Shown here: one piece after another, positions 1-55,142 of the stretch
Layout: each line of letters begins with the position of its first letter
How positions within the stretch are numbered: the stretch's first letter is position 1
Assembly: GCA_027262695.1 (NCBI GenBank)
Contig: GCA_027262695.1_4722.1
Direction: 5' to 3' (one strand)
DNA length: 64,000 nucleotides
From: a phage
Notes under the pieces: model-generated
Told to the model about the DNA's origin: nothing
The model's database searches: none
The model's input: only the letters and a program-made list of their open reading frames with translations
Program-made: the position numbers and the translations under genes

Positions 1-33
1 GAACCCCACCAAAACGTCAGACACACGCAAAAA

Positions 34-16840: not shown

Positions 16841-16953
16841 AAGCGCACCCTCCTCCAACAATCAAATTAAGATGCAAAACGCCTCGAAACCGGAGTGCGA
16901 TTCGAGGCAAACGTAAACAGTCTTAACGACCGCATAAAATTCCGCGCATATTA

Positions 16954-16965
16954 CCCCCCCCCCCC
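16954..16965. repeat. C12 homopolymer (G12 on coding strand), intergenic
   Basis: Twelve consecutive C between stop of 16997-18751 and start of 16313-16840. Confidence 0.9.
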
Positions 16966-16996
16966 TCGCTTCGTCGAGGTAGGGGAGGATAACACT

Positions 16997-28860: not shown

Positions 28861-28937
28861 AATTACATCCTCTTAATACGGATTGATTTTAGATTGATAA
28901 CAACATAACAGCCCTCCGAAGTGGAGGGCCTGGTTAA

Positions 28938-29249
28938 TTACTTGTAGAAATGACGTAAAACCGTTGCGATAGGGAACAACCCTGTAACGGTGTTATCACC
29001 CGCGAACATCATGTTCGAACCATTAACCGTGATGAAACGGATATCGGTTACTGAACCATCGATGGCGACAAATCGCATCGAGTTAGGTGGAAGATCTTCA
29101 ATAACATCCTCCAGGTATTCACGGTTTTCAAACGCTTCTTTAACACGACGCATGAAACGAATCAAGGTTCCTTCAGCATCAGCTTCCAAATGGCCTAAGG
29201 TATCACGATTGTTACGAATAGCGAATACAGTCATTTTAAACATATTCAT
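28938..29249 (-). CDS. hypothetical protein
   Basis: 103-aa ORF; conserved upstream motif at 29311-29345. Confidence 0.45.
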   Translation of the reverse strand: MNMFKMTVFAIRNNRDTLGHLEADAEGTLIRFMRRVKEAFENREYLEDVIEDLPPNSMRFVAIDGSVTDIRFITVNGSNMMFAGDNTVTGLFPIATVLRHFYK

Positions 29250-29310
29250 CCTAGCATCCTCTTGTGTTGGATTGATTTCTAAACATCTAGGTGAAGCATA
29301 TTACTGCTTT

Positions 29311-29345
29311 GCTTCACCTTGGTAATATAGCCGTGAAAATTATTG
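29311..29345 (-). promoter_or_regulatory. conserved upstream motif copy 2
   Basis: Plus-strand ggtaatatagccgtgaaaattattgtatt. Confidence 0.45.
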
Positions 29346-29376
29346 TATTAGCTTATCACGCCTTCGTTAAATAAGG

Positions 29377-33176: not shown

Positions 33177-33202
33177 TTCTTTTCCTTCTTATCGGCATAA
33201 AC

Positions 33203-33220
33203 CCTCCCATACCGGGAGGG
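33203..33220. promoter_or_regulatory. short GC-rich stem-loop preceded by GGCATAAA
   Basis: ccctcccataccgggaggg. Confidence 0.5.
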
Positions 33221-47787: not shown

Positions 47788-48084
47788 TTATACCGCTACT
47801 TGTGCTTTAATAGCAGGGTGTGATTGATATCCGACGAACACGAAGTCTTCGTAACGGTAATCCGTGATACTCTCTGGTTTCCGCACAATTTTCAGTTTTG
47901 GTAACGGATACGGCTCACGACTAAGTTGTTCTTTAACCTGTTCGAAGTGGTTATGGTAGATGTGACAATCTCCACCTGTCCACACGAACTCCCCAACGTC
48001 CATATTCAGCTGTTGGGCGATCATGTGTGTCAACAGCGAATATGATGCGATGTTGAACGGAACACCTAAAAATACGTCAGCACT
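47788..48084 (-). CDS. thyA: thymidylate synthase, exon 2
   Basis: Encodes [25 protein letters not shown]...[39 protein letters not shown], the conserved ThyA C-terminal part. Confidence 0.85.
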
Positions 48085-49191
48085 CATTCTGTTCAGATAA
48101 GGTCGTTAGTCTTATCCCGTTATGTTAACCGCTGTAGATTATCTCTACAGTTCGGACTATATCACGATCTCCTTCCCTGGAGACCCCTCCCGTTTCACAC
48201 CCACTTGGGCGTTACGCTACTCATCACTATTTTCATTCATCCGTTTAGTGCTTTCGCTAGTCTCTGGGCATTCTTCTACAAGTCTGTACGATTCAAATTT
48301 GGGATTTTTACTGCCTAATCGATAAAGTATCGTTGCCGGAACAACGCCTAACTGCCGAGCCGCTTCAGTTAGAGAGACGTACTCGATTCCATCGATTTCC
48401 ACTTTACGTGCGTTAAGTGGAATATTCCCTCTATTCCTTTCGGCGATGAGACGGCGCGTTTCTTCGCTATGATGTCGACCATAGAACGGATTCCTTTCTC
48501 CGGTTCTGGTTTTCGCAAACTCCGACATCTTTCGACGTGTTTCGTCACTGACTTTTACCCCTAAACGTCTCGCTCTGGATGCAGCAATATTCTCAGGAGT
48601 ACACACTTTTTGTCGAATGAGTTCACGTGTTTCAGGCGTATGTGTTCGACCATACATCCCGTTACGTTCACCGGGTTTTCCGTACACTATACGACGCTCC
48701 TCTGCTGTTAAGGATGCGTTTCTTTTGTTAACAGCATAAGCTATCTTATCGATTATTTTGTCACGGTCTGGGTTTCTGGTGAGGTTGTCTCCGCCTACGA
48801 CACCCAACCCAATATTAAGCAAAGCTTCATTCGGTAGACAGTCAATGAACTTCTGCTCTAAAGCATATGCTTCTTCACGAGAAGCGCATTCATCGACCGT
48901 AACCGAGATAAAGCAGCCCTTATTATAGGCATTTTGTAATCGACTGTTTCGATGAACACCGCGACGCAAATTCGATTTGTGATCCACTAAGCGTTGCTTT
49001 AAATTGTTGGTACTACCAACATAGACATCACCATCTTGGGTACATAACCGATATACTACTGGTTTTTTCATACTGCCTCCTTTATAAGAGAGACAGACAT
49101 GTAGAAGGTTAGCAACGGATTAGCCCGTAGGCTTTCCCGTTTTAAGGAGGTTATTCGACGTAGCTCACGCTACGAAGGCGCAGTTGCATTT
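48085..49191 (-). mobile_element. group I-type intron in thyA carrying a homing endonuclease gene (boundaries inferred)
   Basis: ThyA frame broken after QLYQR (codon CGU ending at 49192) and resumed at SADVFLG (48084); intron last nucleotide G at 48085; internal GIY-YIG ORF. Confidence 0.7.
48217..49071 (-). CDS. GIY-YIG homing endonuclease (I-TevI-like) with NUMOD-type repeats and C-terminal HTH
   Basis: 284 aa; VVYRL...DVYVGSTNNLKQRLVDHKS...NSRLQNAYNK GIY-YIG motifs; repeated G.HTPETRELI and GRHHSEETRRLI modules. Confidence 0.8.
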   Translation of the reverse strand: MKKPVVYRLCTQDGDVYVGSTNNLKQRLVDHKSNLRRGVHRNSRLQNAYNKGCFISVTVDECASREEAYALEQKFIDCLPNEALLNIGLGVVGGDNLTRNPDRDKIIDKIAYAVNKRNASLTAEERRIVYGKPGERNGMYGRTHTPETRELIRQKVCTPENIAASRARRLGVKVSDETRRKMSEFAKTRTGERNPFYGRHHSEETRRLIAERNRGNIPLNARKVEIDGIEYVSLTEAARQLGVVPATILYRLGSKNPKFESYRLVEECPETSESTKRMNENSDE

Positions 49192-49914
49192 ACGCTGATA
49201 AAGCTGACACGACAGTGCGCGCGTAGGTACGTTATGCGCATTCAACCAGAGTTCGGTTTCGCTCTGTTTAACGTCGTCAGTAACCCATCGTGCCCTTAGC
49301 GCATCGTTACGGTGGACGTAATAAACACGTTCGTCGATGGTGAGCTCGTGAGTGTAGAACTGATAGAAACTATGGCATGCGGGAAGCGCCATATCGTCTA
49401 AATCGCCTACGTTCCATGCACTAACGATAATCCGCCGAGAATCAGGATCTTCTTTGAGTTGACGCATCACGTTTGCAATTTGGTCATGGTGTTTAACATA
49501 CAAGAGATGTTTGACCATACCGTCGTTAACAATACCGCAATACTCATAACCACGTTGCATCAAAGTACGGGTACGTTCTGTATCATGCGGAACAACCACT
49601 TTGTAGTCAATCCATTCTCGCCATTGTCTGCCGTAAATCGGTCCTAGATTCCCTTCCTTATCAGCCCACTCATTCCAGATGCGAACACCATTATCCTGAA
49701 GATAAGCAACGTTTGTGTCGCCGTTAAGAAACCAGAGCAGTTCGTGGATAACGCTCTTAAGGTGAATCTTCTTAGTGGTTACCAGCGGGAATCCTTTCTT
49801 CAAGTCAAAACGCATTTGACGCCCGAATACCGAACGGGTACCGGTACCTGTACGATCGGCCTTATCGCGACCGTTATCCATGATGTCTTGCAAAAGGTCC
49901 AAATACTGTTTCAT
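49192..49914 (-). CDS. thyA: thymidylate synthase, exon 1
   Basis: [38 protein letters not shown]... closely matches ThyA N-terminus; [14 protein letters not shown] and catalytic-Cys motif [11 protein letters not shown] present. Confidence 0.9.
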
Positions 49915-50187
49915 TTTAATCCTCTAAGTGTTTCAAGTAGTTCCTGAAATTTGTAACGATATTTAGGATCGCTTAACGTGCAGCAGCAACCATGTAACAC
50001 GTTATACGCGTAATCGGCTTGTAAACCACGAACCTTAGGATCCAATGATAGATTCAATGACGCACCATCAAAAATCCACGCTTCAATGTTCTTCTTGGAT
50101 TCCTTCGTTAACGTCGTTTTTCACCTCGTCGTAAAAGTAAATAGAGTTTTGTCGAGACGCCCTAATTACATACAACGTCGGTTATCC

Positions 50188-51069
50188 TCAGTAACAGTTA
50201 TAATGGGTTCCAAGCCGCTCCGGTTTTCTCAGAAGACTATCTTTAAGCGGTACGACGTCGATATCAACGTTTTCTGAATAATAACCATTAGAACTACCAT
50301 ACCAACGAATAACAACACATCCTTTTGCTGTACGAATATGGTAAAATGTCCATCGCGTACGTTTGCAAAAGTCGTCATCCTCGTCTCTTTCCTCGGTTCT
50401 TTCTTCAGCGCTAAGTATCTTCTCACCAATAATGTCGTTAAGATCGCCATCGATGTCTTCAAGGTACACTTTTTCACAGCAATCTTGCTTATGGCAGAAT
50501 TCAACAACGTTCCCATCGCCCCGATAGAAAAGAAGGGCAATGCTGTATTGTAGCTGTTCGGCCGTTAAGTCTGTCGCGCAATACAAACTTTGATCTTCGG
50601 TTATCACCAAGACATTGTTGATTACGTGTCCGGCAAGCGCTCCGATCTTATTTACCGTGATAATCGGACGAACCGGTTCAGGTTGAACGATAGGGATACG
50701 AACACAGCCAATTAAAGCCATCCGTCCTTTCTTTGGTCTAACCGCAAGGTAAGGTGATTTTCTTGGGTGGTTATGTAGTCGTATTTCTACCTCGTTGAAT
50801 TTAATCCCGTATATACCCAAAAACCGATCGAACAGTTTATGAAATTCCTCGGTTGCCTCTTGCAGTGTGATGTTATTTACTGTGAGTTTATGTCCCCTGA
50901 ACACCCGGGTTAAATCGATAACATCCAGTGTTTTGAAATATATTTCCGTAAGGGGATGACCCGTGTTTTCCAGGTAAGTAATTGTTCTTTGAACCACGAT
51001 TTTAGGTGGTGTGCCTTTAAAACGTTTCAGATATTTAACACGATAACGGGTATGATCCGATGTTAACAT
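50188..51069 (-). CDS. hypothetical protein
   Basis: Start set at ATG 51069 (AGGAGAGGAG RBS); ORF-track start lies in hairpin 51144-51164. Confidence 0.5.
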   Translation of the reverse strand: MLTSDHTRYRVKYLKRFKGTPPKIVVQRTITYLENTGHPLTEIYFKTLDVIDLTRVFRGHKLTVNNITLQEATEEFHKLFDRFLGIYGIKFNEVEIRLHNHPRKSPYLAVRPKKGRMALIGCVRIPIVQPEPVRPIITVNKIGALAGHVINNVLVITEDQSLYCATDLTAEQLQYSIALLFYRGDGNVVEFCHKQDCCEKVYLEDIDGDLNDIIGEKILSAEERTEERDEDDDFCKRTRWTFYHIRTAKGCVVIRWYGSSNGYYSENVDIDVVPLKDSLLRKPERLGTHYNCY

Positions 51070-51143
51070 TTTAATCTCCTCTCCTGGCTTCAGAGAATTC
51101 TTAAAATCCGTTAGTTTTGATAGATAGGGTAAGACGGCATAAA

Positions 51144-51164
51144 AGCCTCCCATTACGGGAGGCT
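51144..51164. promoter_or_regulatory. short GC-rich stem-loop preceded by GGCATAAA
   Basis: agcctcccattacgggaggct. Confidence 0.5.
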
Positions 51165-51176
51165 TCATTAATCAGC

Positions 51177-51725
51177 TTATTTCACAAGAACAGCGAATTC
51201 GAGAACGTAAATAGCTTCATCGTCCATCGGATTTGTTGTGGTATAACCAACGAAGCAATAGCCCATAACCGCGATAAACTCGCTAAGTTTATCGATGACT
51301 GATGCCCCGATACGATCGTCAACAGACAGACGACATTTACGGGTTATGTTTTGCCCGCGAGGAACACCAGCCAACACGGATAGAAAATGTACGATCCGGT
51401 TATTGGTTGTGAACTGTACGTAATCATCGTAGTGCTTAAGGTCTTTCATCGCAGACTCTACAGTCATCCGACGACCAGGTGACACATACTCAGAATAAGA
51501 ATAAGCTGCAATCGTGCGGCGGTCTTCAGTGAGGTAAGTATTCCCTTCGGGATGATAGCTCTCGATTGTTCCGTCTTCATAGGCGACGGTTACAACAGGT
51601 GCGCCGTACTCGTCGCGACCAAAATCAATTTTACATTTATTTGAAAGCGGTAGAACCGTACAAGGCTTTGCATTGTTCTCATCAGGGAGATCGTAACCAC
51701 TCATCATTTTCAAGAACATAGACAT
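51177..51725 (-). CDS. hypothetical protein, tandem paralog family member 3
   Basis: N-terminus MSMFLKMMSGYDLPDENNAKP... aligns with two upstream paralogs. Confidence 0.5.
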   Translation of the reverse strand: MSMFLKMMSGYDLPDENNAKPCTVLPLSNKCKIDFGRDEYGAPVVTVAYEDGTIESYHPEGNTYLTEDRRTIAAYSYSEYVSPGRRMTVESAMKDLKHYDDYVQFTTNNRIVHFLSVLAGVPRGQNITRKCRLSVDDRIGASVIDKLSEFIAVMGYCFVGYTTTNPMDDEAIYVLEFAVLVK

Positions 51726-51811
51726 AATAGAACCTCATGATAATAAATAATAGAAATGATAGATAGTACAACAAATTGAGGGGGTATTATCCCACCCCCT
51801 CGCAGGGATTA

Positions 51812-52345
51812 CTACTTAACGATCGCGATGATTTTTCCGCCAGCACCGGCGTAATATGCCGTTAACTTACCAGTAAACAACTCTTGTAAAAGACGATTTA
51901 CATGACTAACAAAGTTAGGATTGTCTGATTTTACAAACTCGATGTGGCGCGTTTGTTTTATATCACGATCGATTAAGCGGATTTCCAACAACGCATGAAT
52001 AAGGTTATCGTCAAGTTCACCGTTCGCATCCAGCACTCCCCCGTACGTCGTAGCACGGGCGTCTGCATACATACGGTCAACATCATCCTTCCCAAAACAA
52101 CTGGAATAGGTATACGTTGCGATGGTATTACCATTATCCATCACGTAAACGTTACCGCCTGGGTAATCGATAAATCGTTGAGACTTATCGCCGTGAGCTA
52201 CGAACTCCAACATCGGTTTACCCAACGAATTACGGTTGAATTCAATTGTGGTCAAGCGATCTGGTACCACATGCAACGTAAATGGTTTTGCATTGTTCCG
52301 ATCGCTAGTATCACAGTTACCCATTACTTTAATAACAACACTCAT
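51812..52345 (-). CDS. hypothetical protein, tandem paralog family member 2
   Basis: N-terminus MSVVIKVMGNCDTSDRNNAKPF... Confidence 0.5.
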   Translation of the reverse strand: MSVVIKVMGNCDTSDRNNAKPFTLHVVPDRLTTIEFNRNSLGKPMLEFVAHGDKSQRFIDYPGGNVYVMDNGNTIATYTYSSCFGKDDVDRMYADARATTYGGVLDANGELDDNLIHALLEIRLIDRDIKQTRHIEFVKSDNPNFVSHVNRLLQELFTGKLTAYYAGAGGKIIAIVK

Positions 52346-52417
52346 GTTTTATTCCTTAGTAGTCCTAGTAGTAGTAATGAAGGGGATTTAACCCTCCCCT
52401 TCAAGGGTTAACATGTA

Positions 52418-53017
52418 TCACCAAACCGATTGGTTATTTTCCACTGAAGGTAAAACAACAATATACATTACCGTTCTTTCGGTCGATGTATTTTCCGGTT
52501 CTGGATAAATAAACTTAATGTTGGGATAACCACAATCGCCGAACAGTTTTTTCAGCAATGGAGTTTGACTCTCCGTCACTTTAACTGGACCCACGCTATA
52601 TCTCGACAGACGGATATTAAACGCGCGAATTGGTTCATCTAAACATTTAGGAGGCGTATGTTTCAATGCTAGAAGCATATGTTCAATGTGTAGACATTTA
52701 ATATCCGCCGGTAAATTCTGGTATGAATCCAAGCCTTGGAGAAAATCAAGCGTCGCTTTACAATCTTCGGCGCTAAATTTTTCTTCGAACTCAAACTTAG
52801 ATACCGTCGTTTTACCATCGACAACATAAGTATTACCTGTCGGAGAAAACGATCTTTTTGTTTTATCATTCATGACAACGTTAATGAATGGATTCCCTGT
52901 AGGATCGCGACTGAATTCAATACAAGCTCCGTCGGGAACGGGATATAAATTGAAAGGACGATTAGCATCGGCAATTTCGTTAGAATGTCCGTTAATCATT
53001 TTCAAATAAATAGTCAT
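52418..53017 (-). CDS. hypothetical protein, tandem paralog family member 1
   Basis: N-terminus MTIYLKMINGHSNEIADANRPF... Confidence 0.5.
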   Translation of the reverse strand: MTIYLKMINGHSNEIADANRPFNLYPVPDGACIEFSRDPTGNPFINVVMNDKTKRSFSPTGNTYVVDGKTTVSKFEFEEKFSAEDCKATLDFLQGLDSYQNLPADIKCLHIEHMLLALKHTPPKCLDEPIRAFNIRLSRYSVGPVKVTESQTPLLKKLFGDCGYPNIKFIYPEPENTSTERTVMYIVVLPSVENNQSVW

Positions 53018-53098
53018 TTGATACCTCGGTAAATAAGTAGTTAAAGTAAGTAGTATTGAGGAATTTCACCTCATTAGATAATCTATTTTGGTAATGTT

Positions 53099-53410
53099 TT
53101 ACTGAAACAAGACATTAAATTCGACAAGATACCCATCGGATCTATCGCCACGATACCTGTTACAGAAAACGCCGAATTTCATCAAGAACTCACATAACTC
53201 TTCGGCTTTGTATAACGGAATACGATTTTCGTCGAGCAGAGGACACATATGGCTAACCCGCTCTGACGAATCAACGCAACACAAATAAAGAAGGAATCGA
53301 ACAATAGCTCGGTTCTTAGTGAAGCTCTCGAATTCACCCGCAGCTCTGAACTCATCGAGGAGCTTTGTCGTTTTCTTCAATCGTTCACGATCAAGCATGT
53401 TAACCTCCAT
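53099..53410 (-). CDS. hypothetical protein
   Basis: 103-aa ORF; GGAGGT RBS directly after hairpin 53421-53452. Confidence 0.5.
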   Translation of the reverse strand: MEVNMLDRERLKKTTKLLDEFRAAGEFESFTKNRAIVRFLLYLCCVDSSERVSHMCPLLDENRIPLYKAEELCEFLMKFGVFCNRYRGDRSDGYLVEFNVLFQ

Positions 53411-53420
53411 ACAAACATAA

Positions 53421-53452
53421 CCCTCCTCCTTCCCTTACGGGTTGGAGGAGGG
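53421..53452. promoter_or_regulatory. 32-bp GC-rich stem-loop, exact copy of 7263-7294
   Basis: ccctcctccttcccttacgggttggaggaggg; flanks also conserved (acataa before, tatgctgttat after). Confidence 0.65.
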
Positions 53453-53462
53453 GATTATGCTG

Positions 53463-53777
53463 TTATTCTGTTTTAGGTGACGAACCGTTCTTCTTGAAGT
53501 CGGATTCGTATTTCACATTAGAATCGAGAACCTCACGAACGGTTTTATCTGTACAACCGCGGGCGATATACGCGTTCAAATCGTCACGCAATTTACGCAT
53601 CGTTGTTTTATCCACATCAGAAACATCTGACTTGGTAAGACGGAATGCAATCGCATCACGAATTTTATTCAACGTTGCTGGATTATTACGCTGCTCTGCA
53701 AATACCGCTTTGATGAAGGTACCGCTGTCTTTCGAAGCAACGGCAGCATCAAGAATCTCAATATGCTTTTCAGACAT
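53463..53777 (-). CDS. hypothetical protein
   Basis: 104-aa ORF. Confidence 0.45.
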   Translation of the reverse strand: MSEKHIEILDAAVASKDSGTFIKAVFAEQRNNPATLNKIRDAIAFRLTKSDVSDVDKTTMRKLRDDLNAYIARGCTDKTVREVLDSNVKYESDFKKNGSSPKTE

Positions 53778-53828
53778 TTTCTTTCCTTTAATAAACGATC
53801 ATCGTCATATTCATTGTGCAGGATACCG

Positions 53829-55142
53829 TCACTTAGACACCGCCATGCTTCGCGCTAACGCAACGTCGTACGCATCCATGATTGCGTCGCCGATAGCAGT
53901 ATGACGAATCAACGGAATACCTACGTCTGGATACTCTTTGGTACCCATGATCGATACCGGTTTGTCCTGATAGGCTGCGATCATCGAACGAATGTCCTGA
54001 ACCTGGTTGTATCGGCAGATGGGTTTAAAGCCTGCTTTACGGAACCAATACTCTAATTGAGGCCAATCGGTTTCACCGCGGGCAAGATAATAGAAGGTAT
54101 CTTTACCGTAGTATTCTGTCATTTTGTCACGAATATTGTTAACGAACGCATTGACTTCAGCAATGGCTTCTTTATAGCCCATTACCTTACCATGCTGGAA
54201 ACAATAATCACGTGCTTCTTTCGGTGCTTTGGTTTGCCACCACTCTACCGTTGATTCGCTGATACGACCACCGTCAGCGATTTGACCGTGCACGTCAGGG
54301 AAGACATCAATACGCGGACCGTTAACGATGGATTCTGGATTAGCCAGATCGAAGAACACGATACCGATTTCTAACAACACCCCGTTCTTTTCCAGACTAA
54401 GGTTCTCAACATCCAAACAGAATGCAGGCTTCTCTACCGCTAATGGCTCGAATGAATGGTTGCTGGTATCCGACTCAGCTTCGAGTTCGGTGGCGTCCAG
54501 ATCGGTATCCGCAGGTTTCAGTTCTATTGCGGCATTATCGAGTCCCGATAACGAAAAATAGTCTTCGAAGAAATCAGGTACCGTCATACCACGCAAGTCG
54601 ATATCACAATCTTCCATCCATTGTTTAAACTGGCGCTCATCAACATGGATCGCTAAACGGCATGGTCTGGAACGATTATCCAACACTTCGTCGATCCAGA
54701 AGAAAGTGCGTATAAGTAAGTAAGGATTATGCTCCGCGATGATTTCTTGGCTAGCGTGAGCATCATACACCATTACCTGTATTATTTCCTTACGTGTGTT
54801 ATACGGATCAACCATCAATCGCCGCACGACTTCTCCCAGGTATTCCAGCGCACGTGTGTACACGGTAGATCCAACTTGTCCGTACGCGCTTATACCCGTC
54901 AATAGTTCCTTATAAGACGCGTCTGAAAGCGAAGACGATAGCACACGCGCCAGCTCGGCATTGTATATACTGCATGATTTCTTCGGGGCGATAGCATCAT
55001 GTAACGCTTCAATAAACGCTGGTCCATCAATATCAAACAACCATCCTTGGCGTCGGTGGGCGGTATATCGTAATAACGCACCGATAGCTGCCTGGGGTGG
55101 TGTATATTCTTTTTCGTTAATTTCAAACAGTAGTTCGCTCAT
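53829..55142 (-). CDS. protein with C-terminal DnaQ-like 3-prime-5-prime exonuclease (DEDDh) domain
   Basis: 437 aa; FCLDVENLSLE (DxE), later acidic motifs, and HTAIGDAIMDAYD (H-x4-D) in C-terminal half. Confidence 0.5.
   Translation of the reverse strand: MSELLFEINEKEYTPPQAAIGALLRYTAHRRQGWLFDIDGPAFIEALHDAIAPKKSCSIYNAELARVLSSSLSDASYKELLTGISAYGQVGSTVYTRALEYLGEVVRRLMVDPYNTRKEIIQVMVYDAHASQEIIAEHNPYLLIRTFFWIDEVLDNRSRPCRLAIHVDERQFKQWMEDCDIDLRGMTVPDFFEDYFSLSGLDNAAIELKPADTDLDATELEAESDTSNHSFEPLAVEKPAFCLDVENLSLEKNGVLLEIGIVFFDLANPESIVNGPRIDVFPDVHGQIADGGRISESTVEWWQTKAPKEARDYCFQHGKVMGYKEAIAEVNAFVNNIRDKMTEYYGKDTFYYLARGETDWPQLEYWFRKAGFKPICRYNQVQDIRSMIAAYQDKPVSIMGTKEYPDVGIPLIRHTAIGDAIMDAYDVALARSMAVSK

Follow-up and report, generated by a model that had tools for sequence, protein, structure and literature searches.

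In the hyperplastic regions of T4-type phages, the PeSL (promoter-early stem-loop) elements behave as mobile regulatory cassettes (Arbiol et al. 2010, PMC2839356; Comeau et al. 2014, PMC4122927). Here we describe four small genes that form an array, in coding order D, A, B and C, in a phage closely related to Escherichia phage vB_EcoM_Goslar, and set this array against the PeSLs and three other described systems; it lies in a 64,000-nucleotide stretch of phage DNA (GenBank assembly GCA_027262695.1, contig GCA_027262695.1_4722.1), henceforth called the window. One of these systems is the moron, which in the concept of Hendrix and colleagues is an autonomous promoter-gene-terminator unit between conserved genes of tailed phages. 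Another is found in Goslar itself, a 237-kb nucleus-forming jumbo phage, where the DUF7941 and PF12699 inner-body proteins form multi-copy families whose members have an N-terminal module in common and vary at the C-terminus (bioRxiv 10.64898/2026.04.21.720040). The last is a pair of protein families, PHROG 10337 and PHROG 10807, both of which carry the label 'unknown function'. Our overall reading of the array, to which we give about an even chance, is that its genes are accessory cassettes, dispensable and each with termination of its own, whose evolution resembles that of the T4 PeSLs and whose products are non-structural proteins carrying a conserved binding module at the N-terminus.

Nearly all genes of the window lie on the minus strand, and the region 50000-54000 aligns to Goslar at 92% nucleotide identity across 61% of its length. 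The sequence-only reading had proposed three tandem paralogs here, and open reading frames (ORFs) A, B and C were found on the minus strand exactly where it had placed them (Table 1). Their similarity is clear in BLASTP comparisons (A-B 1e-11, B-C 9e-13, A-C 3e-15), and in phmmer searches of the full set of 733 six-frame ORFs from the window A, B and C match only one another with E-values of 1e-10 to 1e-12. The N-terminal pattern proposed for the three proteins coincides with the invariant columns of their alignment (M1, K6, P21, F35, R37, G41, P43, P59, G61, N62, Y64 and T71); the central pattern, TIA.Y.YS, holds for B and C and fails for A, which has TVSKFEFE in its place. The count of three paralogs stands for A, B and C, but it overlooked a fourth member, D, which matches the C-terminal half of C (BLASTP E 1e-7; phmmer within the window 1e-5); the similarity of A, B and C to one another also reaches, weakly, across their C-terminal halves. 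From the match between D and the C-terminal half of C, the family is seen to be built of two modules: an N-terminal domain (N-domain) of about 78-80 residues and a C-terminal domain (C-domain) of about 100 residues, which are joined in A, B and C, with the C-domain alone forming D. Gene C is 95.6% identical to its Goslar counterpart, gp143. Goslar (L001, MK327938) also holds an intact D (L001 5526-5825, minus strand; about 134263-134562 of the record) that is 97% identical to that of the window; the GenBank record leaves it unannotated and has an overlapping ORF on the opposite strand, Goslar_00145, there instead.

Table 1. Genes, hairpins and spacers of the array, in coding order; folding energies were computed on the minus (coding) strand.
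Feature	Position	Strand	Details
Hairpin after upstream 104-residue gene	53421..53452	minus	-30.4 kcal/mol, z -6.3; left boundary of variable array
Gene D	53099..53398	minus	99 residues, C-domain only; likely start 53398 after GGAGG; mechanical ORF start 53410
D-A spacer	53018..53098	minus	weak hairpin GAGGTGAAATTCCTC, then CAATACTACTTAC..., ribosome-binding site of A
Hairpin after D	53057-53073	minus	GAGGTGAAATTCCTC; weak, z -0.7
Gene A	52418..53017	minus	199 residues, N-domain (about 52772-53017) and C-domain
A-B spacer	52346..52417	minus	hairpin, then CATTACTACTACTAGGACTACTAAGG, ribosome-binding site of B
Hairpin after A	52378-52403	minus	-15.8 kcal/mol, z -1.9
Gene B	51812..52345	minus	177 residues, N-domain and C-domain; homolog of Goslar_00144 (gp144)
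B-C spacer	51726..51811	minus	hairpin, then AT-rich ACTATCTATCA... stretch, ribosome-binding site of C
Hairpin after B	51778-51801	minus	-20.9 kcal/mol, z -3.2
Gene C	51177..51725	minus	182 residues, N-domain and C-domain; homolog of Goslar_00143 (gp143)
Hairpin after C and U-tract	51142-51166	minus	-18.9 kcal/mol, z -3.5; then TTTTATGCC; right array boundary

A profile built from A, B, C and related proteins, run against 1.84 billion representative proteins at E <= 1e-3, recovered the N-domain in 131 clusters at 50% identity. Of 124 proteins, 118 match from residue 1-4 onward; more than half of the family consists of stand-alone N-domains of 73-116 residues, and the remaining members carry unrelated C-terminal extensions of up to 497 residues, with no Pfam match in any of the ten longest proteins, which were tested. 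The N-domain corresponds to PHROG 10337 (stand-alone, about 99 residues) and to the N-terminus of PHROG 10807 (the type of Erwinia phage RAY gp198, 379 residues). B matches these families directly (E 1.5e-6 and 2.4e-4, respectively), as does C (4.5e-3 and 5.2e-3), and for A no direct match to either was found; representatives of the wider family match the two PHROGs at about 1e-11, and a profile built from 119 N-domains of the family detects C (1.4e-25), B (4.1e-22) and A (2.2e-18) and nothing else in the window. The array N-domains share with these two families their sequence, a start at residue 1, a predicted seven-stranded all-beta fold and attachment to unrelated C-termini. They differ in that the C-domain of the Goslar lineage and the stand-alone form D fall outside both families, and in that tandem multiplication was seen only in the Goslar lineage: elsewhere a single N-domain copy was seen per locus (a locus search with a narrower alignment gave 4 loci with one copy each), and the C-domain was found only in Goslar-like contigs.

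N-domain homologs occur in other nucleus-forming phages (the RAY group; gp34 of 201phi2-1), in other phages of >200 kb (Phabio, Viktualia, Proteus phage 10 and, by partial match, the Caulobacter phiCbK-like phages) and in smaller ones (45-kb Obolenskvirus phages of Acinetobacter, a Vibrio phage of 139 kb, a 51-kb phage contig and another contig of 44 kb). The 44-kb contig, whose genes we read as lambdoid, carries its N-domain gene among small genes upstream of the terminase. BLAST and fold searches returned no homolog from PhiKZ or PhiPA3, and on this distribution the A/B/C family does not appear to be universal among nucleus-forming phages. The N-domains of A, B and C share only 31-36% identity among themselves, about the same distance as separates them from homologs of other phages; the paralogs are old alleles undergoing reassortment rather than recent duplicates. 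In the N-domain K6, D15, K20, N62, Y64 and T71 are nearly invariant.

An AlphaFold2 model of full-length C (predicted local distance difference test score, pLDDT, 84; predicted template-modelling score, pTM, 0.71) shows the C-domain as three helices followed by a beta-alpha-beta-beta unit, an alpha/beta arrangement, and the N-domain modelled alone (pLDDT 92) is an all-beta structure of seven strands. Foldseek searches of BFVD with the N-domain retrieved homologs in MadMel, Phabio and 201phi2-1 at template-modelling scores of 0.81-0.88, and its structural matches are limited to uncharacterised phage proteins of RAY-like phages, Phabio, 201phi2-1 and CcrSC. When A-D and distant members of the family were scanned with Pfam, NCBIfam and PADLOC, nothing above noise came up, and the N-domain profile gave only short spurious matches among PDB sequences, so that neither these nor the fold searches yielded homology to a characterised protein that would indicate a function. 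A literature search on Goslar gp143 and gp144, their accession numbers, RAY gp198 and 201phi2-1 gp34 found no functional data, the text matches to gp143 and gp144 being PhiKZ genes and not those of Goslar. Proteins of the A-D family are mildly acidic, and as they are only mildly so the idea that they might be DNA mimics was left unsupported; a link to the ribosome binder gp14 of PhiKZ was likewise dropped, with nothing found in its support.

In Goslar-like genomes the array lies between a conserved 104-residue gene and the DUF7448 and thyA genes, and takes one of these forms: 1) a single C-like gene without D (L019; the protein is present on 11 contigs); 2) D-B-C, in Goslar and L007; 3) D-A-B-C, in the window and L008-L012; and 4) D-A'-B-C, in L021 and L022, where A' has a B-like N-domain. 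The number of N-domain genes at this one locus hence ranges from 1 to 3 (plus D) in closely related genomes, and this variation in copy number, together with the loss and exchange of cassettes, supports well the accessory status that had been suggested for the genes, which prove individually dispensable. Relative to the window, Goslar lacks exactly the 659-bp A cassette, with the junction inside an ACTACT repeat common to the D-A and A-B spacers. L007 is also without A, in a different allelic background and with a junction of its own in the ACTACT repeat; therefore A was lost, or gained, at least twice. Between the window and L008 the upstream flank is 100% identical, and identity drops to 66-68% exactly at the start of D, which places a mosaic breakpoint at the hairpin that bounds the array on the left; within the array the synonymous divergence (dS) is 0.9 to more than 2, and the spacers are 85-92% identical in nucleotides as against 66-78% for the coding sequences. 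The A-B spacer in particular is 91.7% identical between flanking genes at 66-78%, and is identical in four genomes from the hairpin onward, though dS of A is about 0.9. Likewise, L008 and L009 show 97-100% identity over D and A and then 44-80% over B and C, and the identity rises to a peak at every spacer. These patterns show the locus to be a hot spot of cassette exchange whose breakpoints lie in the spacers.

A GC hairpin 3' of each of A, B and C had been noted from the letters of the window, and each of the three indeed folds stably. U-rich tails occur only on the hairpins after B and C, and the depositors' annotation of Goslar gives the hairpins after the homologs of these two genes as terminators. 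The hairpin at the left boundary directly precedes TTATG and the ribosome-binding site of D, and an upstream element like that of the B-C spacer also precedes the single gene of L019. Rfam found no known RNA in the cluster. The array resembles the PeSLs in that short conserved stem-loops part small non-essential ORFs and are better kept than the genes themselves, and in that recombination between neighbouring elements deletes, inserts and replaces single-gene cassettes in close relatives. However, the sequences are unrelated, the array spacers are without a sigma-70-type promoter, and the elements stand in three or four copies at one locus of the window, whereas PeSLs are dispersed. On this comparison the array cassettes would work like PeSLs without being members of the PeSL class. 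With morons the cassettes share the bracketing of single genes by terminator-like hairpins and their presence or absence between conserved flanks in close relatives; they differ in that they are tandem paralogs arranged in an array and lie in a jumbo phage that is virulent, with promoters that are predicted at most.

Several other features of hairpins and signals in the window were recorded. Many strong GC hairpins of the minus strand directly precede TTATG, often as TTATGCTGTT or TTATGCC (e.g. 51142-51166, 53421-53452, 33190-33215, 16950-16990, and near 560-600 and 1090-1130), and may be composites of a terminator and a TATG-type start signal for a phage polymerase; after the hairpins of D, A and B, CA[AT]T...ACTAC stands in place of TTATG. 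The apical part of the hairpin at the left boundary reads AACCCGTAAGGGAA in the window and its exact reverse complement, TTCCCTTACGGGTT, in Goslar, and L011 has a near-identical inverted version; the stem-loop has been inverted with its structure retained. TACTACT was considered as a general promoter motif and rejected: the window has only 5 copies of it, fewer than expected, and it is therefore a local motif. A look-alike of the PhiKZ early promoter, CTATATTACC, has two exact sites in the window, neither of them near the cluster. Both belong to CACG[AG]CTATATTACC in the long intergenic regions 460-645 and 28861-29376 (minus strand), each of which also has a conserved AATCAATCC...AAGAGGATG leader ahead of the next start codon; these regions look like PhiKZ-type AT-rich early promoters with a common 5' untranslated region.

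Comparisons with four related genomes gave ratios of nonsynonymous to synonymous divergence (dN/dS) of 0.1-0.2 overall for all four genes, with 0.04-0.10 for the N-domain, 0.2-0.6 for the C-domain and 0.06-0.17 for gene D. As these values are well under 1, A-D are functional genes, and their divergence reflects old alleles under purifying selection that were reassorted by recombination, rather than fast positive selection. We accordingly regard as refuted the notion that the array holds chance similarities or decaying, non-functional ORFs, for which nothing speaks beyond the missing annotation; it is at odds with E-values of 1e-10 to 1e-15, with dN/dS far under 1 at saturated dS, with the confident fold predictions and with the detection of peptides from Goslar homologs. 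Those peptides come from mass spectrometry of purified Goslar virions, in which gp143, the homolog of C, was estimated at about 4.5-11 and gp144, the homolog of B, at about 1-2.6 copies per virion (bioRxiv 10.64898/2026.04.21.720040, Table S4). They raise the alternative that the proteins are low-copy virion or injected proteins, in which the N-domain would be a packaging or incorporation module carrying variable C-terminal cargo into the capsid or tail. The almost constant position of the N-domain at the extreme N-terminus would suit such a role, as would the place of 201phi2-1 gp34 next to the tail tube and sheath genes and that of the homolog in Acinetobacter phage WCHABP1 after the terminase, portal and head genes; chimallivirus virion proteins with N-terminal modules and variable C-termini do exist, DUF7941 being an example. 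The likeness of the array proteins to DUF7941 and PF12699 is nevertheless confined to this architectural principle and to multi-copy occurrence in Goslar: Pfam finds neither domain in the array proteins, and virions contain those families in abundance but gp143 and gp144 only in traces (about 1-11 copies), with true virion proteins of Goslar reaching hundreds to thousands (bioRxiv 10.64898/2026.04.21.720040). The trace amounts indicate that gp143 and gp144 are expressed but not structural in any ordinary sense. Further, 201phi2-1 gp34 has no mass-spectrometry virion note though its neighbours have one, and over half of the family consists of the domain alone with no cargo, so we consider a virion role unlikely.

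The density of hairpins in the array (4-5 in 2.4 kb) brings up another alternative, namely that the proteins regulate phage gene expression, by RNA binding or antitermination, acting on the many hairpin terminators of the genome. Antitermination has been proposed for 201phi2-1 with no protein assigned to it (PMC11512511), and fold matches at noise level point the same way; but a core regulator would not range from one to three copies among near-identical genomes, and the proteins are mildly acidic rather than basic, which makes this a distinctly improbable account. Much the same low probability attaches to the view that they are factors of inter-phage competition or superinfection exclusion, diversified by conflict among co-circulating Goslar-like phages. 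It would explain why several deeply diverged cassette alleles reassort among otherwise near-identical genomes, but no signal peptide or membrane segment was seen on reading the sequences, no similarity to a known exclusion protein was found, the N-domain is common to very different phages with different hosts, and selection is purifying.

Under the reading that we prefer, that of PeSL-like accessory cassettes, each gene of the array would be a largely autonomous, moron-like unit of expression. The conserved stem-loop spacers would serve as its expression signals, combining a terminator with downstream start signals, and might at the same time supply the short homologies for cassette shuffling, as in the T4-type PeSLs. 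The proteins would be intracellular, non-structural accessory factors, in which the N-domain may bind a common partner or ligand through K6, D15, K20, N62, Y64 and T71, and the variable C-terminal part may tune or diversify the activity of the N-domain. A role in host interaction, either in host takeover or in counter-defence, would be the most likely, though this is the weakest step of the proposal; anti-defence is a plausible candidate.

Several observations sit less comfortably with this proposal. The hairpin after A has no U-tract and that after D is weak (z -0.7), and a consensus scan found no sigma-70-like promoter in any of the three spacers; we infer the promoter and terminator activity of the spacers. 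Goslar-like phages are expected to transcribe with RNA polymerases of their own, no promoter for which was recognised here. Searches with nhmmer and blastn-short found the spacer element nowhere in the 64-kb window beyond the three sites of the cluster; being confined in this manner, it is not a dispersed mobile element like the PeSLs. The conservation of the spacers could also result from regulatory constraint alone, with recombination being incidental. Finally, the genomic context of the stand-alone N-domain homologs is inconsistent across phages.

Directly downstream of C, on the minus strand, lies a DUF7448 (PF24240) gene, 50188 to about 51069, which is present in the window and most relatives and missing from Goslar through an 892-bp indel; its mechanical ORF start, 51168, falls inside the terminator of C, and the true start is therefore probably near 51069. 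Just upstream, a gene for an Rv2179c-like 3'-5' exonuclease (53829-55142, minus strand) is highly mosaic, with identities of 97% in L007 and L008, 75% in L009 and 52% in Goslar and called lengths of 344 to 439 residues. The thymidylate synthase gene (47791-49914, minus strand), which is uninterrupted in Goslar, is split in the window into exon 1 (49189-49914; residues 1-242 of Goslar ThyA) and exon 2 (47791-48084; residues 242-339), separated by about 1.1 kb that contain a 284-residue ORF (48217-49071). We read this ORF as a GIY-YIG-type homing endonuclease, and sub-threshold Rfam matches to group I introns lie on both sides of it (E 0.14 and 0.17); the insertion is probably an intron with a homing endonuclease, as in T4 td. 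Public assemblies contain well over 100 contigs of about 240 kb from Goslar-like phages. Many assemblies whose labels name Salmonella, E. coli, Shigella or Enterobacter isolates include Goslar-like contigs of about 235-250 kb (P0005, P0017, P0028, P0038, P0049, P0069-P0072, P0096 and others), which suggests that Goslar-like phages are often carried along with cultured isolates, either in a carrier state or as contamination.

The protein family is catalogued only in PHROGs of unknown function, and the cassette behaviour belongs to the known dynamics of phage genomes, which occur here with different elements and in a nucleus-forming jumbo phage. Goslar is a model for the nucleus-forming phages, and yet the array genes are unstudied there and D is not annotated. 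The present analysis defines a two-module family whose N-domain, missing from Pfam, occurs in at least 131 clusters across very different phages, and it offers a concrete case of accessory variation in jumbo phages, in which single-gene cassettes are swapped at conserved stem-loop spacers. Since natural variants with one, two or three copies exist, function is directly testable by comparison or engineering. In a further proposal, which we hold to be rather doubtful as a joint claim, the N-domain of PHROG 10337 would be a widespread module of phage effectors, such as one that binds or soaks up a host immune component or signal, and Goslar-like phages would keep a reassortable repertoire of it; the spacers would be the first case, in a nucleus-forming phage with its own RNA polymerases, of mobile regulatory cassettes like the PeSLs. 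If the N-domain is indeed a module of counter-defence or host takeover, the result would extend to many unrelated phages.

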